The position numbers and the translations under genes were made by a program. From Candidatus Forterrea multitransposorum CG_2015-17_Forterrea_25_41 (GTDB lineage Archaea; Iainarchaeota; Iainarchaeia; Iainarchaeales; CSSED10-239), in assembly GCA_009392915.1 (NCBI GenBank), contig CP045477.1:64001-128000 (forward strand): a DNA stretch of 64,000 nucleotides, given 5' to 3'. Positions 8,898 to 57,959 of the stretch are shown here, in pieces (position 1 is the first letter of the stretch; each line of letters begins with the position of its first letter). The notes beneath the pieces were generated by a model that saw only the letters and a list, made by a program, of their open reading frames with translations, was not told where the DNA came from and made no database searches.

Positions 8898-9293
8898 ATG
8901 GTTGAATGGATTAAAAAATCAAAAAGAAAAAAAACAGGTGGAATAGATAACTCTGTTAATTTTAAAACAAAAGCATTATCTGATAGAGGTGGATCTTTTG
9001 TTAAAACTGTTGTTGATGATTCTGAAAAGAAATTTAAAGAAAGAACAAGAGGCGGAAATGAAAAATTAAAAATTTCAAAAGCATCTACTGTTTTAGTTTC
9101 AGACAATGGTAAATCTTTTAAAGCAAAAGTTTTAAATGTTGTAGAAAATCATGCAAATAAACAATTTGTAAGACAAAAAGTAATTACAAAAGGTTCAATT
9201 GTTGTAATTGAAAAAGATGGTAAAGAACATAAAGCAAAAGTTACTTCAAGACCAGGACAAACAGGTCAAGTTACTGCTGTTTTAGTAAAATAG
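8898..9293 (+). CDS. rps8e: 30S ribosomal protein S8e (eS8)
   Basis: RKKTGG..., TRGGNEKLK, VLNVVENHANKQFVRQKVITKG, TSRPGQTGQVTAVLV. Confidence 0.92.
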   Translation: MVEWIKKSKRKKTGGIDNSVNFKTKALSDRGGSFVKTVVDDSEKKFKERTRGGNEKLKISKASTVLVSDNGKSFKAKVLNVVENHANKQFVRQKVITKGSIVVIEKDGKEHKAKVTSRPGQTGQVTAVLVK

Positions 9294-9303: not shown

Positions 9304-9846
9304 ATGTTAACTTTTTTTAAAAAAATTAAAAGAGATTTGAAAACTAAAAAAAAAATAAAAGAATCTCTTTATTTTTTATTATTTTTTATAATTTCTTTTT
9401 CTCTTATTTATTTATTATTATCAAAAACCTTAATCTATAATTTTATAAACTATTTTTATGGTTCTCTTTCAAGTATTATTCTTAATATTTTTTATGGAAT
9501 TAATACTTCTTTTTATTATGATTTTATAGAACAAGTAACTTTTCTAATAATTCCAAGTATAGATTATCCTGTTGCAATTGTTTTCTTATGTACTGGTATT
9601 TTAGAATTTTCTTTAATTGTAAGTGCTATTGTTTCAACTATTGGTTTTTCTTTAAGAAAGAAAATAAAATGGGTATTAATTTCTTCTTTCCTTGTAATTA
9701 TTTTTAATCTTTTAAGAATAACTTTTACAATATTTATAATAGATTATTTTAATTTAGAAATAGCAGATTTTTTCCATGGTTTTTTATTTAGATTATTTTT
9801 AGTAATTATTGTTATTGGTACTTATTATTTTTTCTTAAAATCTTAA
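9304..9846 (+). CDS. exosortase/archaeosortase family protein (small form)
   Basis: 180-aa polytopic membrane protein with the family Cys/Arg/His pattern: VFLCTGILE (Cys), IFNLLRITF (NxxR), FFHGFLF (His). Confidence 0.65.
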   Translation: MLTFFKKIKRDLKTKKKIKESLYFLLFFIISFSLIYLLLSKTLIYNFINYFYGSLSSIILNIFYGINTSFYYDFIEQVTFLIIPSIDYPVAIVFLCTGILEFSLIVSAIVSTIGFSLRKKIKWVLISSFLVIIFNLLRITFTIFIIDYFNLEIADFFHGFLFRLFLVIIVIGTYYFFLKS

Positions 9847-9850
9847 ATTA

Positions 9851-10162
9851 TTATTTTTTAGGACCTTTCTTAATTTTTGGTTTTCTTTTTTTACAAGCTT
9901 CATTTTGAATAACAATTTCTTTTGTTAATTTATCATTCTTTCTTTGAAGACTTGCAATCTCACATAAAATAATTTCAGCAAATTCTTTATTTCCTTTATT
10001 TGATCTAATCATGTCTTTACAGTATTCTATGTTAATGTTATTAAGTTCAATTTTTTCAGAATTAGAAATTGTACCTACTCTATTTTTTTCTTGCAATTGA
10101 TTTTTTCTTTTTGCAATTGGTGATGATGAATGATTCCATTTTTGATTTAATTCAGTAGTCAT
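9851..10162 (-). CDS. hypothetical basic protein
   Basis: 103-aa ORF whose start overlaps the upstream gene's stop by 4 nt (ATGA), so the two are likely translationally coupled. Lys-rich C-terminus. Confidence 0.5.
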   Translation of the reverse strand: MTTELNQKWNHSSSPIAKRKNQLQEKNRVGTISNSEKIELNNINIEYCKDMIRSNKGNKEFAEIILCEIASLQRKNDKLTKEIVIQNEACKKRKPKIKKGPKK

Positions 10163-10551
10163 TTTTGCATCTCTTCTTTAATGATTTTTTTCACTTGTTC
10201 AATAGTTGTATACTCTAAAGGATTAATATTATCAATTACATATTTCATTTCTTTTAAATCTTCAGCTCTTGCATATCTTTTTGAAAACATCTCAAGATTT
10301 GATTCAATCCCTTTCATTCTGTTTTCAATATCTTTCATTTTTTTAAAAATTTCTTCAATTTTTTCATTAGATGCAAAAGAGCCTTGTGAATCTGAAGTAT
10401 TGGCTGAAGCAATCTTTTTATTTAAAACAAGGATGTTTCTTCCAAGTATCTTTTCATTATGCACAAGATATTTTATCTTTTGTCTTAAAACAAGAAGACT
10501 TGATTGTAAAGCTTTAATATCTTGATACACATTCTGTGATTGATCAACCAT
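10159..10551 (-). CDS. hypothetical coiled-coil protein
   Basis: 130-aa ORF with heptad-like charged/hydrophobic periodicity. First gene of a two-gene minus-strand unit. Confidence 0.5.
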   Translation of the reverse strand: MVDQSQNVYQDIKALQSSLLVLRQKIKYLVHNEKILGRNILVLNKKIASANTSDSQGSFASNEKIEEIFKKMKDIENRMKGIESNLEMFSKRYARAEDLKEMKYVIDNINPLEYTTIEQVKKIIKEEMQK

Positions 10552-10745: not shown

Positions 10746-11102
10746 ATGAATAAAAAAATATTAAATATTTTTGGAGTACTTTCTGTTTTAGTTTTTTTAA
10801 TGTTTATTTCATTAAACTTAAGTGCAGAGAGATTTGATGTTACTGATATTTCTTACTCTTATGTAAGTTATAATTATCCATATTACCCAAATGGTCAATA
10901 TTATAATAGTTACTATAATTATTATGATTATTATATTCCAACAGGTTATGTAAATTCATATACAGGCTATATTAATTATCCTGCTTACTCAAATTATGTT
11001 CCAACTTACTATAACACTTCATATGTAACTTATCCTTCATACTATAACAACTCAATCAGTTATGGAAGTCCAGAGGCATATGTTTCTTTTAGTTGGCAAT
11101 AA
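10746..11102 (+). CDS. secreted tyrosine/asparagine-rich low-complexity protein
   Basis: Sec-type signal peptide (MNKKILNIFGVLSVLVFLMFISLNLSA). The mature region has about 28 Tyr in about 90 residues by hand count. GAGGTG SD. Confidence 0.7.
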   Translation: MNKKILNIFGVLSVLVFLMFISLNLSAERFDVTDISYSYVSYNYPYYPNGQYYNSYYNYYDYYIPTGYVNSYTGYINYPAYSNYVPTYYNTSYVTYPSYYNNSISYGSPEAYVSFSWQ

Positions 11103-11129: not shown

Positions 11130-14100
11130 ATGAACTATAAATATTTTTTTGTATTTTTATTAGTAGTTTTATTTTCATCAATGGTATTTTCATACACAAT
11201 TGGTTTTGATTATGCTGAAGTTAGAACTACAAGTTATCCTAACTATCTTAATTATCAATATGCTCATTACTATGATAATATTGATCTAAGATATGGTGTT
11301 TATGGAAGTGGAATTTCTTCTCCAGTAACAATAATTGTTTCTCCAAAAGTTTATGGAATAACAACTACTGGTCAAAGAGTCTTTGTTCATAATATACAAA
11401 CTCATTCTTTTTCAATGAATCCTTCTTCTTTTTATACTTATAGTTATAATCCAATGTTTTCTTTTGATCCTGCATATCAAAGTTATGAAGTTGTTTTAGA
11501 TCTTCAAAGTTCAGATGGATCTTTTAATAATTCTGTAAGTAGATATGTTTATTCTCAAGGAACAAATCCAAACCCTGGAGGAGATGATCCTACAGGTGAT
11601 GATCCTAATGTAGTTAGTTGTGATGATTTTTATGTTTCAGGAATGGAAGATATTTATTTAGATGAAGATTCAAGAGAATATTATAATCTTTATTTAGTAA
11701 ATTCTGTTGACTTGCCACTTACAATAACTTCAGTTACAGTTTCTCCAAATAATCCTACTAACTTAGAAATTGAAGATATTACTTATCCTTTTACAGTTTC
11801 TGCTCTTCAAACAAGAAGTGCACAAATTGAACTTTTTACAGATACAGTTTCTTCTGATTATTCAAATAGTTTTCAAATAGAAGTTAAAGGTAAATATGAT
11901 AATTCTTTAACTTGTGAAAAAACATATAATGTTAATTATAGAATACTAGATGCTGAACTTGAAAATAATGGTTCTTGTAGTGATATAAGAATTTTAGATG
12001 ATTATTTTACAATGAGTGATAATTCTTCTAAAACTTTTGAAATTGAAGTTTCAAATGCTTCTCAAGATTATTATTTTGAAGTTGATGATATTGATTTAGA
12101 TACTACAAATGATTCAATAATTGAAGCTAGTGTTAGAAACACAATTGATAAAATATATACAGATTCTTCTAAAATTTTAAAAATAAATGTTTCTTCAGAT
12201 GACACTTCTTTTTATAGAACTGAAAAAATTGATTTAGAACTAACAGGTTATTTAAAAAGAGAAAACAGAGAAGATAAAAAATGTAGAATAAGAGAAGATG
12301 TTTCAATAAGAGTTTCTCCAGATTCTTCAACTGGAAATACTTCAAATGAATGTGATGATATAAAAATATATACAAGAGATGTTTTCCAAGATTCTCAAAT
12401 AACAGAAAACTACTCTCTTCAAGAGGGTTTTTATATTTATAATGGAACTAATAAAAAATTTACTGTATCAGGTATTAACTATAAAGACAATACTATGTAT
12501 GCAGATATCTTTTCAAAATCTTTTGATTATACTCTTTATCCTAGATCCTCTAATGCTTTAAATTTTGATATAAGAACAAGTGAAGTTTCAGAAAATAAAC
12601 TTTCAAATGCAGAAATTTCTATTCAAGGATATTTTGAAGGTGGACTTTCTTGTAGTTATTCAGATATAACTTCAAACTTTAATTTAACTATAAGAGAAGA
12701 AAATGATTTTTGTTCAAATGTAGGTATTTATGATGACAGTTTTGTTGAAGGTGAAAATTATTTTACAGTTTATAATAACACTAATAAAGACTTTACTGTA
12801 AATGATATTATTTCTCAAAATTCAGTTAACTCAAATGTAGGTGTGATTGATTCTTCTTTTAAAGTTTTAAAAGATTCACAAAAAACTTTTAGAGTTGGTT
12901 CTTCAGGAAATGGTAGTTTTGAGCTTTTAGCTAAAGGTGTTTTTTCAGATGGCACTTCTTGTGACTATACTCAAACAAGCAGTGGTTATTTCAATAGTGA
13001 TTCTGGTTATGATTTTTCAGATACTTCTTGTGAATTTGAATTTAATTATCCAAATGTAAAATATATCTCTTTAAACGGAGACTCTCTAAATTTTGATTTT
13101 AGAAACTTAACTGGAAAATCTGGTGAGATTAGACTTTCTGCAGTTGGTGCTGTAATTGAAGATCCAATTATTAAGTTTTCTTCATATTCATCTTTTAATA
13201 AAGAAATAGATCTTTTAAATATTAAAAATCCAAAAATGGTTCTTTATACAATTGAAATTTACGGTTGTTCTAAAAAATCATATTTTACAAATCTTTATCC
13301 TTTAGGAAATTCTATTCAAGGAGATGTTTCATTTTTAACATATCCTAGTAATTTAATTTCAACTAAAGATAAATTTATAAGTTCTTTTTCACTTAAAAAC
13401 TCAAGTAGTTTTTCAGAAGATGTTGAAATTAAATTTTCAGGTTTTACAAGTGCATTTAATTTTGTATCTTCTCCTTATCCATTAAACCCAAATACTTTCT
13501 CATCTTCAGATAATGTTTCAACAGTTACAATAAATCCAAACTCTACAAAAAATATTTATTTTGGAGTTGATGTTTTAGAAAATGCAGAATATAAAAAATA
13601 TAATGGATATATTGAAGTTTATAGTAATAATAAATTATTATTTAAAGAGCCTTTATCAATAGATAGATCAATTACTACTAATAATTTATTAGTAAATACT
13701 ATGGTTGAAAAGACATCTGTTAAAAATACTGTTCTTTTAACATTTACTTTTGAAAACAAATTACCTGACCTTACAAGAGAACTTTATTTATCTTTTGAAG
13801 ACGAGAATAGTTTTGAAGTAGATGGTAATAGAAATATATCTGTTGCACCATTAAGTGTACTTGAAAGAAGCTTTACTGTTAAATATAATGAAGGTTCTTT
13901 ATTTAAGTATAATTTAATAGATACAGATAATTCTTCTCTTGCATATTCTGGAGAAGTAGATTTAAAAGAAATTGATAATTCTTCAAATCTTTTATCTGGA
14001 TTTTTTACTCTTTCAGATACAAAAGGATTTATATTTGCAATTGTTCTTATATTACTTATAGCTTTAATTATTTTCTTAATAGTTTATGGAGATAAATCTA

Positions 14101-14273
14101 GAGCTAAAAGAAAACAAGAAACTAAATCAGTTTTAGAAACACAAGAAAAAATAAAAGAAGAAATTAGAAAAGATAATTTTTCTAATATTACTAAGTCTGA
14201 GATTATAATAGGAAATAAGCCTATTATAAAGCCTGCAGAACCAAGACAGATTACTTTAGGTGAGCTTGATTAA
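11130..14273 (+). CDS. large surface protein (1047 aa): signal peptide, five Cys-bracketed modules, TM anchor, charged tail
   Basis: N-terminal signal peptide. Repeat modules of about 110-125 aa each begin and end with a Cys (aa ~164-713). TM segment GFIFAIVLILLIALIIFLIV followed by an ~80-aa K/E-rich tail. Confidence 0.8.
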   Translation: MNYKYFFVFLLVVLFSSMVFSYTIGFDYAEVRTTSYPNYLNYQYAHYYDNIDLRYGVYGSGISSPVTIIVSPKVYGITTTGQRVFVHNIQTHSFSMNPSSFYTYSYNPMFSFDPAYQSYEVVLDLQSSDGSFNNSVSRYVYSQGTNPNPGGDDPTGDDPNVVSCDDFYVSGMEDIYLDEDSREYYNLYLVNSVDLPLTITSVTVSPNNPTNLEIEDITYPFTVSALQTRSAQIELFTDTVSSDYSNSFQIEVKGKYDNSLTCEKTYNVNYRILDAELENNGSCSDIRILDDYFTMSDNSSKTFEIEVSNASQDYYFEVDDIDLDTTNDSIIEASVRNTIDKIYTDSSKILKINVSSDDTSFYRTEKIDLELTGYLKRENREDKKCRIREDVSIRVSPDSSTGNTSNECDDIKIYTRDVFQDSQITENYSLQEGFYIYNGTNKKFTVSGINYKDNTMYADIFSKSFDYTLYPRSSNALNFDIRTSEVSENKLSNAEISIQGYFEGGLSCSYSDITSNFNLTIREENDFCSNVGIYDDSFVEGENYFTVYNNTNKDFTVNDIISQNSVNSNVGVIDSSFKVLKDSQKTFRVGSSGNGSFELLAKGVFSDGTSCDYTQTSSGYFNSDSGYDFSDTSCEFEFNYPNVKYISLNGDSLNFDFRNLTGKSGEIRLSAVGAVIEDPIIKFSSYSSFNKEIDLLNIKNPKMVLYTIEIYGCSKKSYFTNLYPLGNSIQGDVSFLTYPSNLISTKDKFISSFSLKNSSSFSEDVEIKFSGFTSAFNFVSSPYPLNPNTFSSSDNVSTVTINPNSTKNIYFGVDVLENAEYKKYNGYIEVYSNNKLLFKEPLSIDRSITTNNLLVNTMVEKTSVKNTVLLTFTFENKLPDLTRELYLSFEDENSFEVDGNRNISVAPLSVLERSFTVKYNEGSLFKYNLIDTDNSSLAYSGEVDLKEIDNSSNLLSGFFTLSDTKGFIFAIVLILLIALIIFLIVYGDKSRAKRKQETKSVLETQEKIKEEIRKDNFSNITKSEIIIGNKPIIKPAEPRQITLGELD

Positions 14274-34396: not shown

Positions 34397-36484
34397 ATGC
34401 AGTTAAAGAAACTAACTTTAGTTTTATTATTTTTATTTATTTTTTCCATACCAGTTTTTTCTTCTTCTATAACTCTTTATGTTTCCTCTCCTTTTTCCTC
34501 TTCATCTTCAAATTTTAGTATTTCTCCTTCACTTTCTTTTGACAAGTTATCTTTAGTTTCAGAAGATAATTTATCTTTATTAAGAGAGCAAAATATTATT
34601 GTTAAAGAAGAAATTATTAAAGAAAAAGAATCTTCTTTAGAAGATAATTCTCTGTTAGAAGAAATAAATTCTCCAAATCATATTTATGAAACTTATTTTC
34701 AAGATTCTGTAATGATTGGAGATGTTTATTTTCCAGAAGGTATAATTGATTCTTCTCAAGTAAGAGAAAGAAGAAATATTAACTCTCAGTCTACAGTTGA
34801 TAATATTTGGGGTACCACTCCATTAACTGGAGAATATCATATTCCTGTTTTTTTAGTTGATTTTTCAGATGTTCCACATACTCTTTCTAAAGAAGTTTTT
34901 GAAGAACAATTTAATTCTCCTCTTTACTTGGACGGTAATGGTACAAGTGTAAGTCAGTATTACAAGAAACAATCCTATGGTGAACTTGATATTACTTTTG
35001 ATGTTTATGATTGGAGAGAAATGCCTGAAACTTATGAATATTATAGTACAAGATTAGGTGTTTTTGGAGCTCAAACAATAGATCTTTTTGGAACTGGTCC
35101 AAATGCAATTGATTTAACTCAATATGATTCTGATAATGATGGTAGGATAGATGGTTTTGTAATTGTTCACGCTGGTTTTTCTTTACAGAACGCTGGTACT
35201 GGTCATATTAAGACATCTACTTTATTAATGTATTCTGATGAAATTTTAACCATTCAAGGTTTGCATTATGGTAATATAGCTGTTACTTCTGAGAGATATC
35301 CTAGTTGTTCTTCTGGTTTTAATGAAAATTTAATTCCATATCCAGATGATTGTAGAATTGGTGTTTTAGATCAAACACATGAGTTTGGTCATATTTTAGG
35401 TCTTCCAGACTTTTATGGTATTGATCCAAATACTGGTGGTCAATCTCCTGGTCTTCAAAACCTAACTATGATGATGATGTATGATGACATTCCTCAAAAA
35501 CCAATTAATTTAGATGCTTGGGCAAGATATTTTTTAGGTTGGATACAACCAACTGTAATTGAAGAGGGCATGGAAGGTGTTTATCCAGTTTATTCAATTG
35601 ACACCAATCCAGATGGTGCTTTTATTTTACAAGATCTAACTGAGATGGATGAACGTGAATTTTTTATAATTGAAAATAGATTTATGCAAAACTCCCCTTA
35701 TAATCAAGATACTTTTCTTTTAAACACTTCTCAACTAAATTGGGATTATTTAAATGGTCATTTTGGTGGAATTGCAGTTTATCATGTTGATGAGCAATAC
35801 ATTGAAGATAATTATCCAACTAACAGTATCATGTGGGATCCTGATGGAGATTTTTATGATGATACTATAGGGCATCCTGGAATCGTTTTTGAAGAAAATA
35901 TAAAATTTTCAGAAAATAATTGGGATTATTCATTAGGAGATTTATATTCTAGTGAACGTAATGCTGGTTTTGGAGATAATACTTTTGGTAATTTTGATAG
36001 ATACCAAAGATTTTATCCAGAATATAATATGTTATGGGATTATCACAATAAAGCCTATAATGGTAATTTAACTGGTGTTACTGTTGGCACTTTAAGTGGT
36101 AGTGGATCTATAGTTTATGCTTATCTTCAAAGTTATCAAGAAACTTTTAATGCTTTAATCTCTTCTCCAAAAAATAACAGATGGTATAAGTATACTAATA
36201 ATTTAAATTTCATTTCAAGTTATTATAATAATTTAGGAGATGTAAGTTGTGTTTGGGAAGATTCCAGTAATAATATTCTATCTCAAGATTGTGAATTTTC
36301 TGCAACTCCAGAAGATTTAGGTTTACCAATCAGTGAATGTTCTGAGAAAATCACTCTAACTTTAGAAATAACAGATCAAGAAACTGGTGATACAATTATT
36401 GATACTGTTGATATAAAGATTTATGAAACCATAAGAGATATTTGTGAGACTGCTCATAACAACACCCAAGCAGCCACAAAATAA
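34397..36484 (+). CDS. secreted M6-family (immune inhibitor A-like) zinc metalloprotease
   Basis: Sec signal peptide. HIPVFLVDFSD...SVSQYYKKQSYGELDITFDVYDW and HEFGHILGLPDFY (HExxH) fit the M6 domain. Confidence 0.8.
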   Translation: MQLKKLTLVLLFLFIFSIPVFSSSITLYVSSPFSSSSSNFSISPSLSFDKLSLVSEDNLSLLREQNIIVKEEIIKEKESSLEDNSLLEEINSPNHIYETYFQDSVMIGDVYFPEGIIDSSQVRERRNINSQSTVDNIWGTTPLTGEYHIPVFLVDFSDVPHTLSKEVFEEQFNSPLYLDGNGTSVSQYYKKQSYGELDITFDVYDWREMPETYEYYSTRLGVFGAQTIDLFGTGPNAIDLTQYDSDNDGRIDGFVIVHAGFSLQNAGTGHIKTSTLLMYSDEILTIQGLHYGNIAVTSERYPSCSSGFNENLIPYPDDCRIGVLDQTHEFGHILGLPDFYGIDPNTGGQSPGLQNLTMMMMYDDIPQKPINLDAWARYFLGWIQPTVIEEGMEGVYPVYSIDTNPDGAFILQDLTEMDEREFFIIENRFMQNSPYNQDTFLLNTSQLNWDYLNGHFGGIAVYHVDEQYIEDNYPTNSIMWDPDGDFYDDTIGHPGIVFEENIKFSENNWDYSLGDLYSSERNAGFGDNTFGNFDRYQRFYPEYNMLWDYHNKAYNGNLTGVTVGTLSGSGSIVYAYLQSYQETFNALISSPKNNRWYKYTNNLNFISSYYNNLGDVSCVWEDSSNNILSQDCEFSATPEDLGLPISECSEKITLTLEITDQETGDTIIDTVDIKIYETIRDICETAHNNTQAATK

Positions 36485-36570
36485 AAAAATAAGTAAACCA
36501 TTTATATACTTTATGTTATATAATTTATAATATAATTATTTAAAATAAAAAATAAATTAAGGTGAATATT

Positions 36571-39531
36571 TTGATAAAAATAAAAAAAGGACAAATTTCT
36601 TTAGAAGCAATTATTATAATTGGTGTTATTGTTTTAGCAAGTATTATATTTGCGACATTCTATATTTCTAATGTTAATAAAAAAATAGATACTGCAAGTA
36701 ATCTAGATCCTAATTTTTCTGGAATGATTGGATCTGATGAAATGGGGTCAACTGATCCTATAACTATTGGTGAAGAACCAGGTCCAGGCCCAGGTCCAGG
36801 AGGAAGTACTTGTGGTGATAATATTATTGAAGGTACAGAAGATTGTGATGGTACTAATTTAGGTGGTGCTACATGTGAGTCTGAAGGTCAAGGTACAGGA
36901 GATTTATCTTGTAATTCAAATTGTACTTTTGATTATTCTGGTTGTTCTAGTCCAACAGCAAGTTATACAATAACTTCAAGTCATGGATCAAATGGAACTA
37001 TTTTTCCTTTAGGAGCTGTAACAGTTTTAGAAGGGGCAAGTAAAAAATTTAATTTGTATCCAAATGCAGGTTATGATGTAGATACTGTTTCAATTGATGG
37101 TGCAGAAGTTTCTCTTAGTGAAAGAAGAAGTTATACTTTTAATAATGTTACTTCCGGTCATACTATTCATGTAACTTTTAAACCTTATGCTTCAAATGAA
37201 CATATTATTTTTGCAAGTAGTGGTTCTCATGGAACCATAGATCCTGCAAGAAATAATACAGTTATAGAAGGAGATGATATTACTTTTACATTTAATCCAG
37301 ATACAGGATATCGTGTAGGTAATGTCTATATTGATGATACTACTGTTGGTTCAGAACAAATAGAGATTATTAATGATTTTTCTTCAAAAGATTCTGAAAA
37401 TAATAATTTATATTTTTCAGAAGAAGATGTTTTATATTTTGCATCTGATACAGGGACAGGTACTTCTTCAAATTTAGTTTATACTTTTGAAGATGTAGAT
37501 GATAGTCATACTATTCATGTAACTTTTATATCAAACACAACTCCTACATATACTTTAGAATATATTGCTGGAGCAAATGGTAGTATTTCTGGTCCAAATC
37601 CTCAAACTGTAAGTCAAGGAGAAGATGGTACAGAAGTATGTGCTGTTGCAGATGAAGGTTATGAATTTTTTAAATGGGATGATGATTATTATTCTGAATG
37701 TAGAACTGAAACAAATGTAACAAGTAATCAAACATATACTGTTATCTTTAATGAAAATGCAGGTCAAACAATGGCTATGAATTTAGAAGGTGTTGAATCA
37801 ACTCCAATAAATCAAAACTTTGATGTTGTTGTTAATACTTCTGAAACTCCAGGAACTGTAAGTTATGGTTTAGTTGCAGGATTATTAATTTATAATGATG
37901 TTGCAGGAGATTATTTGCCAACAAACAATTGTTCTTATAACGGAACTTTTGCTTCAAATCATACACTTGAAACAAATCAATCTCCAGGTATTGAAAATTA
38001 TACTTTTACATGTAATACTTCTGGAAACTATAAATTTACATTTACAGCAACAGATACAACTAACTCAACAAATGATGTTTCAAGAGATAAATTAATTACT
38101 GTTGTAAATAACCAAACAGCAGCACCAACATTTTCAATTGATGGAGGTACTTATTTTAATGATCAAACATTAACTTTAAGTTCAACAACTCCTAGTGCAA
38201 CTATAAAATACACAACTAATGGTACTATCCCAACTTGTACTACAGGAACAACTTATTCTCCTGCAAGTCCAATTCAAATTAATCAAATTTTAACAGTAAA
38301 AGCAATTGCTTGTAAATCTGGATATATTGATAGTCAAGTTGTTACAGAAATTTATAATTTAAAAGTTGGATATCCAGAACCAAGTGTTAATCCTGGTGTA
38401 TATTCTCAAGCACAGACAATTACTCTTTCAACAGAAACAATTGGTGCAACTTTGTATTATTCAACAGATGGTTCTGATGCTTTTGATGGAAGTGTTTACG
38501 TTCCAGGAGAAGAAATTATAATTTCAAAACCATATACTGAATTAAGAGTGGCAGGAGAAAAATCAAATTATAATGATAGTTCAGAATTTGATGAATATTA
38601 TTATATAAATGGTTATGAATCTCCAACTCCAAGTATGGTTTTTACAAATTATTATGGAGATGCATATAATCTTGTAGGTGCTGCAAATTTAACTCACTCA
38701 GATGTTTTCTTTGAAGATGAAGAAAATAATTTAGTAAGATTTGTTAATCCTAAATTAAATGGAGATTATTTTAACGGAAGTAATGCTTCAGGAGCTACAT
38801 TAATAGATTGTGAGGCATTTTGTTCTGAAAAGTATCTTGGAGGAACTTGTGATTCTTTTGATAAAACTAATTATTCTGGAAATGCAAATAATTTGATATA
38901 TTATAGAAATATGATTCCTGGTTCTGGTGGTGCAAATGATGTTTTCCCTTACACAATTGGGGGTGAGTTATCTAATTCTCCTCAATGGGCTTATGCTTCT
39001 GGAGCTATTGGTGGACCAGATAGAGTAGGATACTTCACTTGTGATTTTTCACACACCTCCAGTCCAGAAGATGCAGACTTTGGATTTATTGATTTATATA
39101 CTGAAGATTTATTATTAAATTATGGTGATCCATTTGATGGTACAGAATTCTATTATGATTCTTCAAGAGTAACTTTTGATAATGTTACAAAGTCTGGTTC
39201 AGAATATACTTATTCAGGTTTAAATGTTGTAGGTAATTTTGACACACCAGGCGCAACTGCTCCAACAGGAACAGTTTATATACTTTCAGATGATTTTTCA
39301 CAAGCTTGTGATGCTGTATGTGATGCTTTATATCAAGAAAGTTCTTGTGAAAATTATGATACAACAGATGTATATACTGCTAAAGGAGTTTCATATAATT
39401 ATTATCCTCCTGAATATGCAACAATATTTAATCCTAATTTAAGTACAGGTTATTATTGGACATCTGGAAGTCAACTTTTCTATGATGTTTGGTCAGAAGC
39501 TGTTCTTTCAGAAGTTACTTGTTCAAAGTAA
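36571..39531 (+). CDS. very large type IV pilin-like (class III signal peptide) adhesin-type protein
   Basis: The track start GTG at 36562 lies inside the AGGTGA SD, so the TTG at 36571 is the likely start. N-terminus IKIKKG/QISLEAIIIIGVIVLASIIF (KG|QxSxE plus hydrophobic helix). Then a GPGPGPGG linker, a CGDNxxExxEDCDG Cys-rich repeat, three beta-repeat modules (two ending HTIHVTF), and two chitobiase-C-like modules (APTFSIDGGTY..., EPSVNPGVY...). Confidence 0.75.
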   Translation: MIKIKKGQISLEAIIIIGVIVLASIIFATFYISNVNKKIDTASNLDPNFSGMIGSDEMGSTDPITIGEEPGPGPGPGGSTCGDNIIEGTEDCDGTNLGGATCESEGQGTGDLSCNSNCTFDYSGCSSPTASYTITSSHGSNGTIFPLGAVTVLEGASKKFNLYPNAGYDVDTVSIDGAEVSLSERRSYTFNNVTSGHTIHVTFKPYASNEHIIFASSGSHGTIDPARNNTVIEGDDITFTFNPDTGYRVGNVYIDDTTVGSEQIEIINDFSSKDSENNNLYFSEEDVLYFASDTGTGTSSNLVYTFEDVDDSHTIHVTFISNTTPTYTLEYIAGANGSISGPNPQTVSQGEDGTEVCAVADEGYEFFKWDDDYYSECRTETNVTSNQTYTVIFNENAGQTMAMNLEGVESTPINQNFDVVVNTSETPGTVSYGLVAGLLIYNDVAGDYLPTNNCSYNGTFASNHTLETNQSPGIENYTFTCNTSGNYKFTFTATDTTNSTNDVSRDKLITVVNNQTAAPTFSIDGGTYFNDQTLTLSSTTPSATIKYTTNGTIPTCTTGTTYSPASPIQINQILTVKAIACKSGYIDSQVVTEIYNLKVGYPEPSVNPGVYSQAQTITLSTETIGATLYYSTDGSDAFDGSVYVPGEEIIISKPYTELRVAGEKSNYNDSSEFDEYYYINGYESPTPSMVFTNYYGDAYNLVGAANLTHSDVFFEDEENNLVRFVNPKLNGDYFNGSNASGATLIDCEAFCSEKYLGGTCDSFDKTNYSGNANNLIYYRNMIPGSGGANDVFPYTIGGELSNSPQWAYASGAIGGPDRVGYFTCDFSHTSSPEDADFGFIDLYTEDLLLNYGDPFDGTEFYYDSSRVTFDNVTKSGSEYTYSGLNVVGNFDTPGATAPTGTVYILSDDFSQACDAVCDALYQESSCENYDTTDVYTAKGVSYNYYPPEYATIFNPNLSTGYYWTSGSQLFYDVWSEAVLSEVTCSK

Positions 39532-46375: not shown

Positions 46376-46816
46376 TTGTCTAATTTTGGTGTTAAAAAAA
46401 TCTCTTTTAAATATTTTATAAAACATACTTTTATTGTTTTTTTTATTTTGTTATTTATAAGTATGTTTATTAATCTAGTATTTATTTTATTTGGTTTTAC
46501 AGATTTAGGTCTTGTTACTGAAAAAATAAAAACTCTTTCTCCATTTTTTATAGTTTATTTATTAGTTATTAGAGTTTTTTTAGAAGAATGGTTTTTTAGA
46601 GGTTTTTTAGTTTATAAAACAGGTATTTTATTTTCTGCATTTCTATTTGCTGCAGGACATTATGGGTATGGGTCTATTGTTGAAGTAGTGGGTGCTTTTA
46701 TATTAGGTTTAGTTTTAGCTTTCTATTATAAAAAAATAAATAATATTTATCCTCTTTATGCTGCGCATTTTCTATATAACTTAATGGTTATTTTAGTTAC
46801 TTTTTTTACAATTTAA
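46376..46816 (+). CDS. CPBP family intramembrane glutamic endopeptidase (CAAX protease-like)
   Basis: EEWFFRGF (EExxxR), FAAGHYGYG and AAHFLYN (HxxxN) motifs within TM helices. The TTG start is uncertain. Confidence 0.75.
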   Translation: MSNFGVKKISFKYFIKHTFIVFFILLFISMFINLVFILFGFTDLGLVTEKIKTLSPFFIVYLLVIRVFLEEWFFRGFLVYKTGILFSAFLFAAGHYGYGSIVEVVGAFILGLVLAFYYKKINNIYPLYAAHFLYNLMVILVTFFTI

Positions 46817-47897: not shown

Positions 47898-49103
47898 TTG
47901 ATTAATATGTTTTCAAAAAAAATTATTTTAGTATCTGTTTTATTTTTACTTACATCTTTATTTTCGGGGTTGATTTTCTCTGAAAGATATATAGATAGTT
48001 CTTATGTTCAAGTTATTGCTCAAGAAGTAAGTCCTGAACCAGTAGAGCCTGGTCAAGATTTTTTACTAAAAGTTAGAGTTCATAATTTTGGAACAGTGGA
48101 TGCTAAAAATGTAAAAATTAATCTTGATTTAAATTATCCTTTTTATTTAAAAAATACAAGTGAGTCTTATATTGACTTTAATTCGATTTGTTCTAATTGT
48201 TCTGCAGAAAATACATATTATTTTACAGTTTCAAGTTCTGCAGTTTCAGGGATATATCCAATACATTTTAATATATCTGAAATAAATAATGAAACTGTTT
48301 CTTTTAAACCTCAAATAATAGATATTTCCATATTAGGTAAACCTGATTTAGTTTTAGAAACCATAAAAGTAGATCAAAATATTTCTGCCGGAGATATATT
48401 TAATATTAAATTTTTATTAAGGAATATAGGTACTGGGAATTCTAGAAATATAAAAATAATTCCTAATTCTGATGATTTTATGCTTATTGGGACAAATACT
48501 AAATGGTTTGAAGAATTAGGTCCCAATAAAGAAATTATTTTTGATTTAAATTTTATTTCAAACAAAGATTTAATTTCAAATAGTTATATTTTTCCTATAG
48601 ATCTTGAATTTTTAGGAGAAAAACAAAATTTTTATACCTCTTCATATAATATTGGAATTAATCTTTTAGGAAAAGCAGATTTATCTTTACAAAATTTAAA
48701 AATTACTCCTTTAAACCCTTCTTTAAAAGATTTAATTAATTTTGAAGGAATTATTGAAAATATAGGAAATGGAAAAGCAAATAATGTTTCTTTAGAATTA
48801 TTTGTTTCAAATGATGAGAATTATAAATATTATATTGGTCAATTAAATAAAGATGATGATGCTCCTTTTTATTTTAATGAAATTAAATTTAATTCTGTTG
48901 GAAATAATAAAGTAAATTTGATTGTAAATTATGATGATGATTACGGTAATTATAAAATAGAAATTCCTTTAAATCAAAATATAAATAAATCTAATAATTT
49001 ATCTTTATTTTTTATAGTTTTATTTTTATTTTTGGTTTTATTTTTTAGTTTGTATTTATTAAAAAATAATAAACACAATAAAAATAAAAAAATAAAGAAT
49101 TGA
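47898..49103 (+). CDS. secreted COG1361/CARDB-like repeat protein with C-terminal TM and basic tail
   Basis: Signal peptide, then repeated EPVEPGQDF.L.V.V.N.G...AKNV.I.L-type beta-sandwich modules. C-terminus LSLFFIVLFLFLVLFFSLYLLKNNKHNKNKKIKN. Start is TTG 47898 or ATG 47907. Confidence 0.7.
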   Translation: MINMFSKKIILVSVLFLLTSLFSGLIFSERYIDSSYVQVIAQEVSPEPVEPGQDFLLKVRVHNFGTVDAKNVKINLDLNYPFYLKNTSESYIDFNSICSNCSAENTYYFTVSSSAVSGIYPIHFNISEINNETVSFKPQIIDISILGKPDLVLETIKVDQNISAGDIFNIKFLLRNIGTGNSRNIKIIPNSDDFMLIGTNTKWFEELGPNKEIIFDLNFISNKDLISNSYIFPIDLEFLGEKQNFYTSSYNIGINLLGKADLSLQNLKITPLNPSLKDLINFEGIIENIGNGKANNVSLELFVSNDENYKYYIGQLNKDDDAPFYFNEIKFNSVGNNKVNLIVNYDDDYGNYKIEIPLNQNINKSNNLSLFFIVLFLFLVLFFSLYLLKNNKHNKNKKIKN

Positions 49104-49114
49104 TTTAGATTTAT

Positions 49115-50314
49115 ATGAATAAAAAAGATATTAAGCTAATGTTTTTTTTAGCTTATAAAAATATAATTAAAAGTAAATCTACTTTTATTGTAATTGTAGC
49201 TGTAATGGCTATGAGTTTTTTGTCAATAACTTTTTTTTCTGCAATTATTGATGGGTTAAGTTATGAATTTGAAGAGTCGATGATTGATGGTCAAACAGGG
49301 CATTTAATGATCGAACCATCTAATGAAGAAAGTTTTATATTTAATTCTGATAGATTAGAAAAAAATATTTCTAAAATTCCAGGAGTAATTGGTGTTTCTT
49401 CAAGATTAGAATCAAATATTTTAATTACTTATAAAAATGAAGAGCTAGGGGCACCTGTTTTCTTTATTGATCCTATTGATGAACAAAAAGTATCTAATTT
49501 TCATGAAAGTTTAATAGAAGGTAGTTTTCTTTCATATAAAGATACATCTGAAATTATTATTGGTTCTGATTTACTAGAACAGTATGCGCCTATAGATGAT
49601 ACTAAGAAAAGGTTTAATCTTAGAATAGGGGATAATATTATTTTAACTTTTAATAATGGTTATAAAAAAGAATATAAAATCAAAGGTATTTTTAAAACAG
49701 GTTCTAAGTTTAATGATGATAAAATTTTAATTAATAAAGAAGAATATTTTTCAATATTTAATAAAGAAGATATTTCTCATAAAATACTTGTTAAACTTCC
49801 TTCAAGAGGTCTTGAAAAAGAATATATTCAAAAGATAGAAGCTTTAGGAATAATTGAACAGATTAACCCTTGGGAAACTAAGATTGGTATGATTAAACAA
49901 TTTGTAGGAAGTCTTCAAATTACAAATCAGATAACTGGTTTTATAGGTTTATTAACTGCATTTGCAACAATTTACATAATTATTTTTATAAATGTAACTA
50001 ATAAAAGAAAGCAGATAGGTATATTAAAAGCTATAGGTATAAAAAAAAAAATTATTCTTGGATCATATATTATTCAATCTTTTATTTATGGTTTTGTAGG
50101 TGTTATTTTTGGAAATATTATTATGCAAATTTTGTTGGCTTTACTTGCAAGTTATCCATTATCTATGCCTATTGGGGATGTAGTTCCATTACTAACAATA
50201 GGTAAATTATTAACTACCTCTTTTATTTTAATTTTAGCCTCTATTGTTGCAGGTTTTTTCCCTTCTAGAAAAGCTTCTAATGATAATATCTTAGATGCTA
50301 TATTTGGAGGATAG
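49115..50314 (+). CDS. ABC transporter permease, FtsX/MacB-like
   Basis: 399 aa. N-terminal TM, large extracytoplasmic domain, then three C-terminal TMs with KRKQIGILKAIG (FtsX family hallmark). Confidence 0.85.
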   Translation: MNKKDIKLMFFLAYKNIIKSKSTFIVIVAVMAMSFLSITFFSAIIDGLSYEFEESMIDGQTGHLMIEPSNEESFIFNSDRLEKNISKIPGVIGVSSRLESNILITYKNEELGAPVFFIDPIDEQKVSNFHESLIEGSFLSYKDTSEIIIGSDLLEQYAPIDDTKKRFNLRIGDNIILTFNNGYKKEYKIKGIFKTGSKFNDDKILINKEEYFSIFNKEDISHKILVKLPSRGLEKEYIQKIEALGIIEQINPWETKIGMIKQFVGSLQITNQITGFIGLLTAFATIYIIIFINVTNKRKQIGILKAIGIKKKIILGSYIIQSFIYGFVGVIFGNIIMQILLALLASYPLSMPIGDVVPLLTIGKLLTTSFILILASIVAGFFPSRKASNDNILDAIFGG

Positions 50315-50317
50315 ATT

Positions 50318-51007
50318 ATGATTAAAAATATTATTGAAGTAAATAAACTTGAAAGAATATATTCTAATGGAATTGTTAAAACTTATGCCTTAAAAGACGT
50401 TTCTTTAAGTATAAAACCTGGTGAATTTGTTGCAATTATGGGGCCTAGTGGTTCTGGAAAAAGCACTTTACTTCATCAGTTAGGACTGTTAGATACTCCA
50501 ACTAATGGAAGTATTATTATTGATAATGAAGATGTATCGAAATTAACTGATAAACAAAAAACTACCTTTAGATTAGAAAAATTAGGTTATGTTTTTCAGT
50601 CATATAATTTATTACCAGAACTTAATGTTATTGAAAATGTTTTTTTAACCTCTATGGCTAAAGGTTTAGATCCTAAAGAATATAATTTGAGAGCAAAAGA
50701 TATTCTTGAAAAAGTAGGTTTAAAAGATAGATTGTATTATTATCCTTCTGAACTTTCTGGAGGTCAACAACAAAGAGTTTCTATTGCAAGAGCATTAGTT
50801 AATAAACCTAAAATTTTATTTGCAGATGAACCAACTGCAAATCTTGATTCTGATTCTTCTCAAGATATAATTGATTTATTTAAAAAATTAAATAAAGAAA
50901 TTAATCAAACTATTGTTATGGTAACACATGAATTAGAAGAAGGTAAAAAAGCAGATAGGATAATTTGGATTAAAGATGGTATTCTAGATAAGTCTGTAAA
51001 AGTTTAA
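50318..51007 (+). CDS. ABC transporter ATP-binding protein (MacB/LolD-like)
   Basis: Walker A GPSGSGKST, signature LSGGQQQR, Walker B ILFADEPT. Confidence 0.93.
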   Translation: MIKNIIEVNKLERIYSNGIVKTYALKDVSLSIKPGEFVAIMGPSGSGKSTLLHQLGLLDTPTNGSIIIDNEDVSKLTDKQKTTFRLEKLGYVFQSYNLLPELNVIENVFLTSMAKGLDPKEYNLRAKDILEKVGLKDRLYYYPSELSGGQQQRVSIARALVNKPKILFADEPTANLDSDSSQDIIDLFKKLNKEINQTIVMVTHELEEGKKADRIIWIKDGILDKSVKV

Positions 51008-54380: not shown

Positions 54381-57300
54381 ATGAAAAATAAGATACTAAT
54401 AATTTTTTTATTTACAATTTTACTTTCAACTTTTATTTTTTCAGATCCTGTTGTAAAGATAAATGATAATTTAACAACATATACAAACAGTGATTCTGAA
54501 AACTTCTATGTTGAAGTAAGTAATACTGGAGATAATTGTGAAGTTGAATCTGATTTTATAAGTATTAATTTAAGTTCAGATGCAGCAAGTTCTTTTCCAT
54601 ATTTAATATACTGTAATCTTGAAAGAAATTATAGTGGTTATTTTTCAGTAGATTTTTCAACAAACACACCAACACCTCCAATACCAAATGTTTTAGTTAA
54701 TAATGAAGATACTGTTATTGCAGACTATAATGGGTTTACTGCTAATTTAGTAGTTGACACAATAAATACTATAACAGGAACTTTTGATTTAAATTCTGTT
54801 GATTCAGTTGTAAATAATTACTATAAAGGAGATGTTGAAGTTACTTCTTTAAGTTCTTTTTCAGATGCACATTCTGGTTTAAAAGAATATTACATTTATA
54901 TTGTTGAAGTTGATTCAGTAAATGACTATAGAGATGATTATTATAAGAGATTAATTGTAGATGTTAATGAAACTTCTATTGATTTAGGTACATCTACAAC
55001 TGTTTCTGATGGAAATTATTTTGTTTTAGTTGAAGCTTTAGATTATGCTGAAAATCTTGCAATACCTTCTCAAGTAATTTTAAATAAAAAAAATATGTAT
55101 GTTGATAATACAGCACCTCAAGTAACTTCTTTTAGTTTAGGAAGTTTTTCAGAAGGTACAACTTATTATGTTCCTTCAACAACTACTACTTTGACTTTAT
55201 TAATTGAAGATGATGGTGTAGGGGTAAGGAATGAACCTCTATATACACAAATAGATAGAGATAGTGTAAAGTTAGCAGATTATAATTCTATATTAGGCGG
55301 TTTCTTTTTTGATTTTACAACAGTTGATTATGATATTGATGGTTCATATGAGCTTGCAGCAACAGATCTTTTAGGTAATTTAAATGAAAAAACATTTTCA
55401 ATAATGATAGATGAAACTTCTCCAACAACTCCAACAATTTCAACAGTTACAAGAGCTGTAGATAATAATGTTACAATTTCAAATTGGGGTACTTCAACTG
55501 ATTCTGGAAGTGGTTTAAAAGAATACAAAGTCTATAGGTCAACTTCTTCTTTTACAGAAGTTTCAAATCAAGATTTAATTTGTACAGTTTCTGCAGCTGC
55601 TTCAAAAACTTGTCTTGATTCAACTTCAAAATCAGATGATACAAGATATTATTATGGTGTTACTGCAGTTGATAATGCAGGAAATAATAGTCCAGTTGTA
55701 ACTGCAAGCATAAAAACAGGTCCTGAACTTGATATTTATATTGATTTAGAAGATTCTGATTTTGTAAATACTGTTACTCCAGAGATAACTTTAGAGTATG
55801 GTTCTGATGTTAATGCTGTTAGATTTAGTTGTAATGCTTCAACTTTTACATCATGGGTTGAAGTTTCGGGAACTTCTGAGGTTTATGAAAGTTTTAATGT
55901 AACTTCTGGAAATGGATGTAATACAGATCAAGGAGATAAAATAATTTATGTTGAAGCAAGAAGTGAAGACGATCCTTATCTTATTACTAGAGAATCTTTT
56001 GAGTTTGAACTTGATTCAAAAGCACCAACAATACCTAGTAACATAGAAGTTTTAGAACAAGCAAATGGTTCTTTAAATATTTCTTGGACAAGCTCAACAG
56101 ATGTAAATGGTAGTGGTCTTGAAGAATACAGGATTTATTATTCAGAATCTGAGTCAGTTTCTAAATCCTCACAATATATGACTTCTTCAGATGAAGAGTA
56201 TATTTTTAATCCTAATGAAGATAAAACATTTTATTTTAAAATATCTGCAATTGATGAAGCATTAAATGAATCTGATCTTTCATCTATTGCTTCTGGAACT
56301 GCAAAAAGATTTGGACCTTCTTTTACTTTTAATGCAAGCCCAAAAAATTTAATTGATGATGTTTATTATTTAAAAAAAGGAAATGTTTTATTTACTATTA
56401 CAAGTAGTGAAGAATTAAAACAAACACCTATTATTAGACTTAAAATTGGTAATTCACCTTATAAATCAATTTCTGCAATTTATAGTAATTTAATTACAAC
56501 TTTTAATTATTCTTTAGAAGAAAGTGGAGATTCAATTTTAGAAATTACAGGTACAAATAATAATAATGAAACAACAACTGATACTTTTAATTTTATAGTA
56601 GATGCAGAAGTTCCAACTTTTACTGCTGACTATAATTTCTTTGAAGATACTAAATTATATGAATTTAAAATAAGTGATTTTTCAGATGATGTTTTCAGAG
56701 TTCAATATTTATTTAATAATGTTGAAGAAGTTTGTTTTATTGAAGATTCAAATAACAATTATCTTTGTTCACTTGATTCTACTCTTTATAAAGATGGTAA
56801 TCATAAAATGTATGTTTTAGTTTATGATAGAGCATTAAATTATGAAACTGAAATTATTTCTTTTGAAATAGATAATGTTGATGAAGCTTTAATTTTAAAA
56901 GAAAATTTAGTTGCTGAAATTAATACAAATATTTTTACAATTGAAGATAGAATTTCTTTCCTTCAAGCAATCTCTTTAGAAGTTTCTCAAGATGTTTTAG
57001 ATAAATTTTCTGAAGCTAAAGAAAAAGTTGTTCTTGCAAAATCTCTAGAAGATTCAAATAATTTTTCAGAAGCTGTAAATACTTATACTTCTGTAAATAA
57101 TTCTTTACTTGAGATATTAGAAGTTTTACCTACAGAAAATGTTTTAAAAACAAAAACTATTGAAATTGATCTTTTAGATAATTCTTTTGATCTTAATACA
57201 GTTATTTTGGATCAAAATATATTAACTGATAATTTGTCTTTTTATGATGTTAATAATCAAGACCTAAATTTTATATCAGTTTCAAGAGAATTTAGTGTTT

Positions 57301-57959
57301 TTGAAGTATCTGGTCAAAACTTTTATTCTAGTAATTTAATTTTTGTAAATGACTCTAATGTAGATAAAGTAATTTCTTTTATTGAAGTAATACCTAAAGA
57401 ATTTGAAAAATCTTCAGATAATATTTATTTTGATAGAAATATTGTTGTAATTGATAAAGATCCAATAATTCTTTATAATTTAGTAATTCCTAAAAATTCT
57501 TCTCTTACAACAAAATATATTAGTCAAACAGCAATTACAAGTTTTGATATTTTAACTAAATTTGATGCAATTGTTTACAAGTCTCCTCTTCTTTTAACTG
57601 GATCTGTAAATTTAGAAGATTTAAATTTTGAAAAACCTTTAATTGATAGTAAATCTTTATTTATGATAGCAGTTGTTCTTTTAATAATAATTATCTTACT
57701 TTTAGTAATCTGGATGGTGGCTTCTGGTCGTAAGAAAAAAGAAGATGTCTTTAAAGAAATGGAACCTAAGGATGCTATGAATAAATATCTTGGAAATAAA
57801 CTAAATAGTAATTCTCAAGAAAAATCTTCAACTGATTCTTCTTCATCTAAAACTTTAGAAGAAAAAGAAGAAGAGCATAAAAGTGATCTTGAAAAGAAAA
57901 AGAAGTATGATAGTAATTATGAGTTTATTTTAGATGCTGTTAAAAGAAGTAATAAATAA
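54381..57959 (+). CDS. large surface protein (1192 aa) with FN3-like modules, C-proximal TM and long charged tail
   Basis: Signal peptide. Recurrent SGL(K/E)EY.(I/V)Y...(Y/F)Y....A.D.A.N modules (three seen). TM LFMIAVVLLIIIILLLVIWMV followed by an ~100-aa K/E/S-rich tail. Confidence 0.8.
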   Translation: MKNKILIIFLFTILLSTFIFSDPVVKINDNLTTYTNSDSENFYVEVSNTGDNCEVESDFISINLSSDAASSFPYLIYCNLERNYSGYFSVDFSTNTPTPPIPNVLVNNEDTVIADYNGFTANLVVDTINTITGTFDLNSVDSVVNNYYKGDVEVTSLSSFSDAHSGLKEYYIYIVEVDSVNDYRDDYYKRLIVDVNETSIDLGTSTTVSDGNYFVLVEALDYAENLAIPSQVILNKKNMYVDNTAPQVTSFSLGSFSEGTTYYVPSTTTTLTLLIEDDGVGVRNEPLYTQIDRDSVKLADYNSILGGFFFDFTTVDYDIDGSYELAATDLLGNLNEKTFSIMIDETSPTTPTISTVTRAVDNNVTISNWGTSTDSGSGLKEYKVYRSTSSFTEVSNQDLICTVSAAASKTCLDSTSKSDDTRYYYGVTAVDNAGNNSPVVTASIKTGPELDIYIDLEDSDFVNTVTPEITLEYGSDVNAVRFSCNASTFTSWVEVSGTSEVYESFNVTSGNGCNTDQGDKIIYVEARSEDDPYLITRESFEFELDSKAPTIPSNIEVLEQANGSLNISWTSSTDVNGSGLEEYRIYYSESESVSKSSQYMTSSDEEYIFNPNEDKTFYFKISAIDEALNESDLSSIASGTAKRFGPSFTFNASPKNLIDDVYYLKKGNVLFTITSSEELKQTPIIRLKIGNSPYKSISAIYSNLITTFNYSLEESGDSILEITGTNNNNETTTDTFNFIVDAEVPTFTADYNFFEDTKLYEFKISDFSDDVFRVQYLFNNVEEVCFIEDSNNNYLCSLDSTLYKDGNHKMYVLVYDRALNYETEIISFEIDNVDEALILKENLVAEINTNIFTIEDRISFLQAISLEVSQDVLDKFSEAKEKVVLAKSLEDSNNFSEAVNTYTSVNNSLLEILEVLPTENVLKTKTIEIDLLDNSFDLNTVILDQNILTDNLSFYDVNNQDLNFISVSREFSVFEVSGQNFYSSNLIFVNDSNVDKVISFIEVIPKEFEKSSDNIYFDRNIVVIDKDPIILYNLVIPKNSSLTTKYISQTAITSFDILTKFDAIVYKSPLLLTGSVNLEDLNFEKPLIDSKSLFMIAVVLLIIIILLLVIWMVASGRKKKEDVFKEMEPKDAMNKYLGNKLNSNSQEKSSTDSSSSKTLEEKEEEHKSDLEKKKKYDSNYEFILDAVKRSNK

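Follow-up and report, generated by a model that had tools for sequence, protein, structure and literature searches.

We analyzed a 64,000-nucleotide stretch of the genome of Candidatus Forterrea multitransposorum, an uncultured DPANN archaeon of the Iainarchaeota (contig CP045477.1, positions 64,001 to 128,000 of the forward strand; hereafter, the window), in which an open reading frame (ORF) at window positions 9304–9846 on the + strand encodes a protein of the exosortase/archaeosortase family. In the reading that we favor, at a probability of ~0.65, this protein is a small archaeosortase that is active as a cysteine transpeptidase embedded in the membrane, and its dedicated substrate is the large secreted surface protein encoded just downstream at 11130–14273. 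The sequence inspected consisted of this ~64-kb window, which represents ~8% of a genome of ~840 kb, together with ±10 kb around relatives of the sortase. The window has a G+C content of 25% and includes an archaeal ribosomal-protein/SecY operon.

A small archaeosortase-family enzyme

The product of the ORF at 9304–9846, which has an ATG start and is 180 residues long, matched the family signature model TIGR04178 with a score of 44.9 bits (E = 1.1e-11), compared to a curated cut-off of 23, and matched Pfam PF09721 with 21.1 bits, slightly below the gathering score of 25.7. By this classification, the ORF is a genuine member of the exosortase/archaeosortase family, as the initial annotation had proposed on the basis of a Cys, NxxR, and His pattern, and an identical protein is already present in NCBI under the name "exosortase/archaeosortase family protein [archaeon]". 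In a scan with NCBIfam/TIGRFAM models, no named subfamily model came near its cut-off; the best scores were 13.6 bits for heimdallarchaeosortase (cut-off 130), 12.6 bits for ArtD (cut-off 125), and 9.4 bits for XrtG (cut-off 102.75), and the ArtA (TIGR04125) and pacearchaeosortase (NF033505) models gave no match at E ≤ 10. A subfamily specific to the Iainarchaeota/Diapherotrites (DPANN), as yet unnamed, is part of what we regard as the best explanation for these results.

The protein had also been described as minimal and very small, a description that the relatives do not bear out. When 1.84 billion representatives were searched exhaustively with phmmer, 145 related clusters were returned, nearly all of them 165–225 residues in length, and every one of 107 distant relatives also matched TIGR04178. 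The models for ArtD, XrtG, and heimdallarchaeosortase have 150, 187, and 199 positions, respectively. Thus, a length of 180 residues is ordinary among a large population of small exosortases and archaeosortases.

The residues expected of the active site are conserved almost without exception. The segments that carry them are VFLCTGILE (residues 93–101), IFNLLRITF (133–141), and FFHGFLF (156–162). Cys96, the predicted nucleophile and the counterpart of ArtA Cys173, is encoded by tgt at 9589–9591 and lies at the outer end of the transmembrane (TM) segment 93–116; the NxxR motif from Asn135 to Arg138 is encoded at 9706–9717, with the aga codon of Arg138 at 9715–9717; and the HGFLFR segment from His158 to Arg163 is encoded at 9775–9792, with the cat codon of His158 at 9775–9777 (all on the + strand). 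Cys96, Asn135, Arg138, and His158 were invariant in 24/24 orthologues with identities as low as 44%. When the 107 distant representatives (20–49% identity) were aligned, Asn135, Arg138, and His158 were retained in all 107 and Cys96 in 105, and position 163 was Arg in 91, Lys in 11, and Gln in 5. The two outcomes that the initial annotation had named as refuting it, failure of the HMM placement and loss of the Cys, Arg, and His in orthologues, were not observed. In two distant relatives, P0153 and P0169, Ser replaces the catalytic Cys (DSTGW versus LCTG) and the Asn, Arg, and His are kept; these proteins may be Ser-nucleophile or inactive variants.

An AlphaFold2 (AF2) model of the sortase, built from the orthologue alignment, was confident (predicted local distance difference test, pLDDT, 87.6; predicted TM-score, pTM, 0.77). 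It consists of helices at residues 15–41 and 43–62, a small beta-sheet at 69–92, a helix at 96–110 with Cys96 at its N-terminal end, a helix at 117–148 bearing Asn135 and Arg138, and a last helix at 151–179 bearing His158 and Arg163, which we describe as four TM helices with an outer-face helix and a small beta-hairpin. No solved structure was related to the sortase by sequence or by fold. The distribution of Lys and Arg is strongly biased, with 9 in residues 1–21, 0 in 42–92, 4 in 117–124, and 0 in 148–156, and both of the segments devoid of these residues are acidic. By the positive-inside rule, this distribution orients the protein so that the N-terminus, the 117–124 loop, and the C-terminus would be cytoplasmic; combined with the helices of the AF2 model, it places the conserved residues in the predicted outer-leaflet half of the membrane. 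This outward placement agrees with the extracellular active site of ArtA (PMC9263693).

A surface-protein neighbor with a tripartite C-terminal signal

The ORF adjoins a surface-protein locus, as had been noted initially. The proposed substrate, a 1,047-residue protein encoded at 11130–14273 (+ strand), starts 1.3 kb downstream of the sortase and begins with a Sec-type signal peptide. It contains no Pfam or NCBIfam domain, and its NCBI entry reads "hypothetical protein". There are 21 N-x-S/T sequons, or 2.0 per 100 residues compared to a window median of 0.74, and 10/10 of its Cys residues are invariant among orthologues, which are homologous over their full length at 28–56% identity. The AF2 model of this protein (pLDDT 69.7) is all-beta, with ~7 beta-sandwich domains between residues ~165 and ~945, followed by a low-confidence linker that holds the motif described below, a TM helix, and a disordered tail. 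A Foldseek comparison of this model to the PDB returned generic beta-sandwich arrays only (ciliary hydin-like proteins and alpha-2-macroglobulins, with TM-scores of ~0.1). The signal peptide, the sequons, and the invariant Cys residues fit a predicted surface glycoprotein, and we consider the protein a reasonable candidate for the surface-layer (S-layer) or major surface glycoprotein of this organism.

The initial annotation had found no recognizable cognate sorting signal near the sortase. Nevertheless, the adjacent 1,047-residue protein carries a conserved motif, a TM helix, and a basic cluster, and the same architecture was present in 29/29 distinct sequences of this protein family: the motif, ~4–6 small or polar residues, a TM helix of ~20 residues, and a cluster of Lys and Arg. 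Among these 29 sequences, which underlie all counts given here, the motif has the consensus L-[TS]-[GA]-F-[FL]-[TS]-[LF], with Leu in 20 at position −1; Thr in 17, Ser in 10, and Ala in 2 at +1; Gly in 18 and Ala in 11 at +2; Phe in 26 and Leu in 3 at +3; Phe in 20, Leu in 8, and Met in 1 at +4; Thr in 12 and Ser in 11 at +5; and Leu in 19 and Phe in 9 at +6. In the window protein, the motif is SGFFTL (residues 956–961; 13995–14012), the TM helix spans residues 966–987 (14025–14090; hydropathy 3.78 over 18 residues; also helical according to AF2), and the basic cluster reads KSRAKRK (residues 989–995; 14094–14114), with 5 Lys or Arg in the 10 residues after the helix (all on the + strand). The motif forms a local island of conservation, with BLOSUM sum-of-pairs scores of 2.6–2.8 compared to −0.1 to 0.8 in the flanking linker, which corresponds to the 90th percentile within the protein. 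P0191, a homologue with just 22% identity, retains PTAFLFL-GQG-TM-RRK.

The length of the C-terminal tail varies within the family. In 19 of the 29 sequences, the protein ends 3–28 residues past the TM helix (within 10 residues in 13), and the short tails are frequently no more than RKK, RKR, RRK, or KKKK, which makes them textbook tripartite signals. Tails of 50–66 residues occur solely in the subclade to which the window belongs, represented by the remaining 10 distinct sequences; the paired sortases seen for these (in the window and at loci L003, L007, L009, and L010) are at least 70% identical to that of the window. In the window protein, the subclade-specific extension, predicted to be cytoplasmic, is encoded at 14115–14270 (+ strand) and ends in RQITLGELD (residues 1039–1047; 14244–14270). 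All 10 long tails, among them P0183–P0189, L009/L026, and L010, end in (K/R)(Q/E)(I/V)(T/S)(L/F)x(E/D)L(D/E) after divergent middles, and the catalytic residues of the sortase and the motif of the substrate are still invariant in this subclade. The 1,047-residue protein had been dismissed as a substrate because of its long tail alone, a feature absent from the 19 relatives with tails of at most 28 residues. The tails of the two giant surface proteins of the window, previously put at 80–100 residues, are in fact ~60 residues past the TM helix in this protein and ~75 residues in the 1,192-residue protein encoded at 54381–57959.

We searched for additional carriers of the signal in several ways. 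A strict regular expression with a TM filter, applied to 452 distinct ORFs, matched only the syntenic large proteins, and a generic screen for C-terminal TM anchors, which covered 783 distinct ORFs, found the motif in these proteins only. A hidden Markov model (HMM) built from 21 signals was then run on 2,308 stop-to-stop segments (288,097 residues) from the window and 64 loci. All syntenic large proteins received 33–67 bits, with 41.1 bits for that of locus L063, which was outside the training set, and no remaining segment exceeded 10.1 bits. Thus, neither a non-homologous carrier nor another candidate signal was found among these 288,097 residues. A search of a 5.8-billion-protein collection with the signal profile returned nothing at E ≤ 10, the known orthologues included, and is uninformative because significance is out of reach for a TM-rich profile of 45 positions in a database so large. 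Curated CTERM models did not reach their cut-offs on the signal or the neighboring proteins. The best scores were 13.8 bits for IPTL-CTERM (cut-off 20.5), 10.8 bits for LPXTG (cut-off 15.9), and 8.1 bits for Heimdall-CTERM (cut-off 24); PGF-CTERM gave no match at E ≤ 10; and PACE-CTERM (NF033506) scored 8.3 bits, compared to a cut-off of 110, on a 36-residue peptide of the sorting signal only, with no match to the full-length neighbors. The earlier statement that no protein of the window ends in a classical PGF, PEF, or VPXXXP signal is therefore literally true.

Two other proteins of the window were considered as substrates and rejected. The CARDB/COG1361-like protein at 47898–49103 does have the C-terminal TM helix and Lys/Asn-rich tail initially ascribed to it, but not the sorting signal described here: the signal HMM gave it 6.1 bits, in an alignment confined to its TM and basic part, and the protein also heads an FtsX/ABC transporter operon. 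The 1,192-residue protein at 54381–57959 was not among the listed matches to the signal HMM. The probable operon at 47898–51007 (+ strand) encodes the CARDB/DUF11-like secreted protein and, after it, an FtsX-like permease and an ABC ATPase, and the TM helix of the secreted protein is likely to be a permanent anchor. Approximately 1 kb upstream of it, a 146-residue Rce1-like CPBP intramembrane protease is encoded at 46376–46816 (+ strand; PF02517, 47.7 bits); myxosortase, which likewise sorts proteins by C-terminal signals, belongs to the CPBP family. Two more secreted proteins are encoded at 34397–39531 (+ strand), one of 695 residues with an M6 (immune inhibitor A-like) peptidase domain and the next of 989 residues, whose signal peptide is of class III (type IV pilin-like) and which also has a chitobiase/hexosaminidase C-terminal domain along with InlB B-repeat-like domains.

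Conserved pairing at the sortase locus

Loci were sampled through the sortase alignment (16 from genomes and 39 from metagenomes), with a few more added by protein look-up. A homologous secreted protein of 734–1,047 residues was encoded downstream of the sortase, on the same strand, in 25/25 assessable distinct loci with sortase identities of 44–100%, and the distance between the two genes was 0.6–5.2 kb in 24 distinct pairs. Locus L024, with no such neighbor within 10 kb, is only an apparent exception, because an insertion of ~8 kb separates an intact pair and the cassette lies undisturbed beyond it. At this locus and at L067 (L024:11059–17106 and L067:489–6905), an ORF of 2,015–2,138 residues and two small membrane-protein genes, together ~8 kb, lie between the sortase and the cassette; the sortase at L024 is 93% identical to that of the window, and the insertion represents strain-level variation.

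The gene order CGI-121 (on the − strand), S8e, sortase, one to three small minus-strand genes, a Tyr-rich secreted protein of ~118 residues, the secreted protein of ~1,000 residues, and the L3 operon was identical at loci with sortases 73%, 59%, and 46% identical to that of the window. In the window, the gene for ribosomal protein S8e (8898–9293, + strand; PF01201) ends 10 nucleotides before the start of the sortase, so the two are probably co-transcribed, and these genes were adjacent in all loci examined. Two small overlapping coiled-coil-like genes, encoding 103 and 130 residues, lie between the sortase and the substrate cassette (9851–10551, − strand) and had sub-threshold Pfam matches only; the ~130-residue gene was kept in all relatives examined, with homologues of 127–131 residues at the same place in L003, L004, L006, and L063. 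The small secreted protein at 10746–11102 (+ strand; 118 residues) is extremely rich in Tyr (YSYVSYNYPYYPNGQYYNSYYNYYDYY...), matched no Pfam or NCBIfam family, and was kept in L003, L004, L063, and the distant L062, where its counterpart has 184 residues (L062:1059–1613). As its gene lies directly upstream of that for the large surface protein in every case, it is a probable partner of this protein and may serve as an anchor or partner for the surface layer.

We claim the pairing only for the subfamily with sortases at least 44% identical to that of the window, because its extension to the sortase of the Candidatus Iainarchaeum AR10 type (34% identical) was rejected when the neighborhood proved to contain pilus genes and no protein with a tripartite signal. 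The AR10-type sortase lies beside a divergently oriented T2SSE/T2SSF (type IV pilus-like) cluster, in which several genes are pilin-like (L064/L065:3825–10558), and these pilus-like neighbors suggest that the AR10-type subfamily has a different class of substrate. Two observations concern individual relatives of the sortase. At L004, where the sortase is 59% identical to that of the window, a bAvd-like gene and a reverse transcriptase gene (RVT_1), resembling a diversity-generating retroelement cassette, are located just upstream of CGI-121, S8e, and the sortase (L004:446–2600). P0081 (L066:7134–10442) has 1,102 residues, of which the first ~180 form a small archaeosortase domain and the others an extension of ~900 residues; among the products of neighboring genes are a homologue of AliA/AliB (lipoprotein biogenesis), a UbiA prenyltransferase, and T2SSE ATPases. 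Considered as a Rosetta-stone fusion, P0081 speaks neither for nor against a link to the surface protein, as its C-terminal part has neither a recognizable signal nor homology to the surface-protein neighbor.

Proposed processing and competing explanations

The interpretation of the sortase and its large neighbor as enzyme and substrate draws directly on family membership, residue conservation, charge-bias topology, the pairing at every assessable locus, and a signal that is both specific and conserved. The steps of processing, including cleavage, its site, and attachment to lipid, are modeled throughout on Haloferax ArtA. By this analogy, the surface protein would be exported via its Sec signal peptide and held temporarily by the C-terminal TM helix, with the Lys/Arg cluster in the cytoplasm. 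The sortase, its Cys96, Arg138, and His158 positioned within the outer leaflet, would recognize the juxtamembrane sequence L-S-G-F-F-T-L, which ends four residues before the TM helix, and Cys96 would attack within or just after SGFF at the outer membrane face to form a thioacyl intermediate. Resolution of this intermediate onto the head-group of a membrane lipid would leave the beta-sandwich ectodomain lipid-anchored and would release the TM helix and tail to be discarded; in the subclade of the window, the discarded part would have grown by ~50 residues with a conserved terminal motif. A long tail does not disqualify the 1,047-residue protein, because a PGF tripartite signal situated away from the C-terminus of its substrate is cleaved by ArtA (PMC6098224, PMC9263693).

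Several observations weigh against this interpretation. Adjacency alone is weak evidence, because the whole region from S8e to L3 is syntenic. All carriers of the motif are orthologues of a single protein; nothing therefore marks the signal as modular, and a structural role, rather than sorting, could account for its conservation. The shared end motif of the long tails suggests a function for the TM helix and tail that is awkward to reconcile with their discard. Locus L062 contains the surface-protein cassette with no sortase in the 1.6 kb available upstream, and the 34%-identical AR10-type sortase has pilus genes where a neighbor with a tripartite signal would be expected. Finally, we know of no small archaeosortase for which there is biochemical evidence.

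Part of this evidence would also fit an arrangement in which the sortase is real but acts on substrates encoded elsewhere that bear another signal, the TM helix of the neighbor is a permanent anchor, and SGFF is a structural juxtamembrane element. Restriction of the motif to orthologues, with nothing to indicate modularity, and synteny of the entire region whatever its function speak for this arrangement; the long tail with its conserved end in the subclade of the window points to a TM helix and tail that stay in place and are put to use, and the inspected share of the genome is only ~8%. We nevertheless consider it unlikely. In most orthologues, the C-terminus is a textbook tripartite signal whose basic tail has 3–10 residues, the motif is centered on Gly-Phe as in PGF and stands out as a sharp conservation peak in a variable linker, no other candidate signal was present in ~288,000 residues around 64 loci, and ArtA processes non-terminal signals (PMC6098224). 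Of the two possibilities raised in the initial annotation, that the substrates lie elsewhere or that the enzyme recognizes an undescribed signal, the evidence favors the second and does not support the first.

For the long-tail subclade, a partial uncoupling can be imagined, in which the surface protein stays TM-anchored and makes use of its tail or is subject to regulated cleavage that yields a functional TM-tail fragment. The confinement of 50–66-residue tails to this subclade and the shared end motif in 10/10 of them despite divergent middles are consistent with such a change, and a TM-anchored fraction of the Haloferax S-layer glycoprotein has been discussed (PMC6098224). However, the catalytic residues and the motif are invariant in the subclade, so selection for processing appears to continue, and a function of the tail before cleavage, for example in targeting, explains its conservation equally well; we therefore judge uncoupling quite improbable. 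Also quite doubtful, and put forward here as conjecture, is a dual role in this subclade, in which cleavage would both lipid-anchor the ectodomain and free a TM-tail fragment that acts in the cell, for example by reporting or coordinating surface-layer assembly, or in which the tail would recruit the precursor to a processing site. If true, a sorting signal would double as a signaling or targeting module, which is undescribed for exosortase/archaeosortase systems. It is extremely improbable, in our estimation, that the ORF at 9304–9846 is an inactive or non-sorting relic, such as a membrane scaffold, kept only through the ribosomal-protein operon. The absence of a subfamily assignment, a Pfam score below the gathering threshold, and the reduced nature of DPANN genomes could be cited for a relic, but Cys96, Asn135, Arg138, and His158 are invariant at 44–100% identity and nearly so in the 107 distant relatives, the AF2 model is confident and compact, and an idle gene would be expected to be lost from a streamlined genome.

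Relation to known sorting systems

The enzyme–substrate pair proposed here most resembles Haloferax ArtA and its target in mechanism. Cys173, Arg214, and Arg253 of ArtA are essential for activity, and the enzyme has its active site on the extracellular side (PMC9263693); lipidation requires HvPssA and HvPssD (PMC6098224, PMC9263693, PMC7157517). ArtA and the window sortase belong to the same superfamily (TIGR04178), Cys96 and Arg138 of the latter correspond to Cys173 and Arg214 of ArtA, and the spacing from Cys to Arg is 42 residues in the window sortase and 41 in ArtA (PMC9263693). The substrate of ArtA is the major surface (S-layer) glycoprotein, and both signals are tripartite with a core consisting of a small residue, Gly, and Phe. 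The systems differ in that the TIGR04125 and PGF-CTERM models do not match the window proteins, the window motif has Ser or Thr in place of the Pro of PGF, its Gly may be Ala, and ~4–6 polar residues precede the TM helix. In addition, one substrate has been seen so far and is encoded next door to the enzyme, and the organism belongs to the DPANN archaea rather than the Euryarchaeota. ArtA is also the larger protein and has more TM segments.

The closest concept is that of pacearchaeosortase (NF033505) and PACE-CTERM (NF033506), a curated DPANN archaeosortase and a putative S-layer protein with its own C-terminal signal, although neither model matches here and that pair comes from Pacearchaeota rather than Iainarchaeota. 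A literature search found no publication on the pacearchaeosortase/PACE-CTERM pair or on Heimdall-CTERM. ArtD (TIGR04175), heimdallarchaeosortase (NF045528, associated with Heimdall-CTERM), and XrtG (TIGR03110), the best subfamily matches, are similar in size to the window sortase and share its catalytic core, but the scores are far under the cut-offs. A cassette of one enzyme and one target is also known from MrtJ and JDVT-CTERM, in which a single sorting enzyme and a single target share a conserved neighborhood (PMC11980579), although MrtJ is an unrelated CPBP glutamic intramembrane protease from proteobacteria. In the searchable literature, archaeosortases are described only in Euryarchaeota (PMC6098224). 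No link between archaeosortases and DPANN archaea is made in PMC6098224 or PMC12462473, and the seven papers found to contain both words have neither in the title or abstract.

The pair in the window is a new sortase/signal pair outside every named subfamily and represents an expected extension of a well-known system. It provides the Iainarchaeota with a concrete proposed enzyme–substrate pair, including a candidate major surface protein now annotated as hypothetical, and with a sorting motif that lacks proline and is detected by no curated model. It becomes possible to build two annotation models, covering the sortase subfamily and its CTERM signal, respectively, and scans for C-terminal signals should tolerate long tails beyond the basic cluster. 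As the cell surfaces of DPANN archaea are essentially unstudied, we expect these results to be useful both for genome annotation and for the surface biology of this group.

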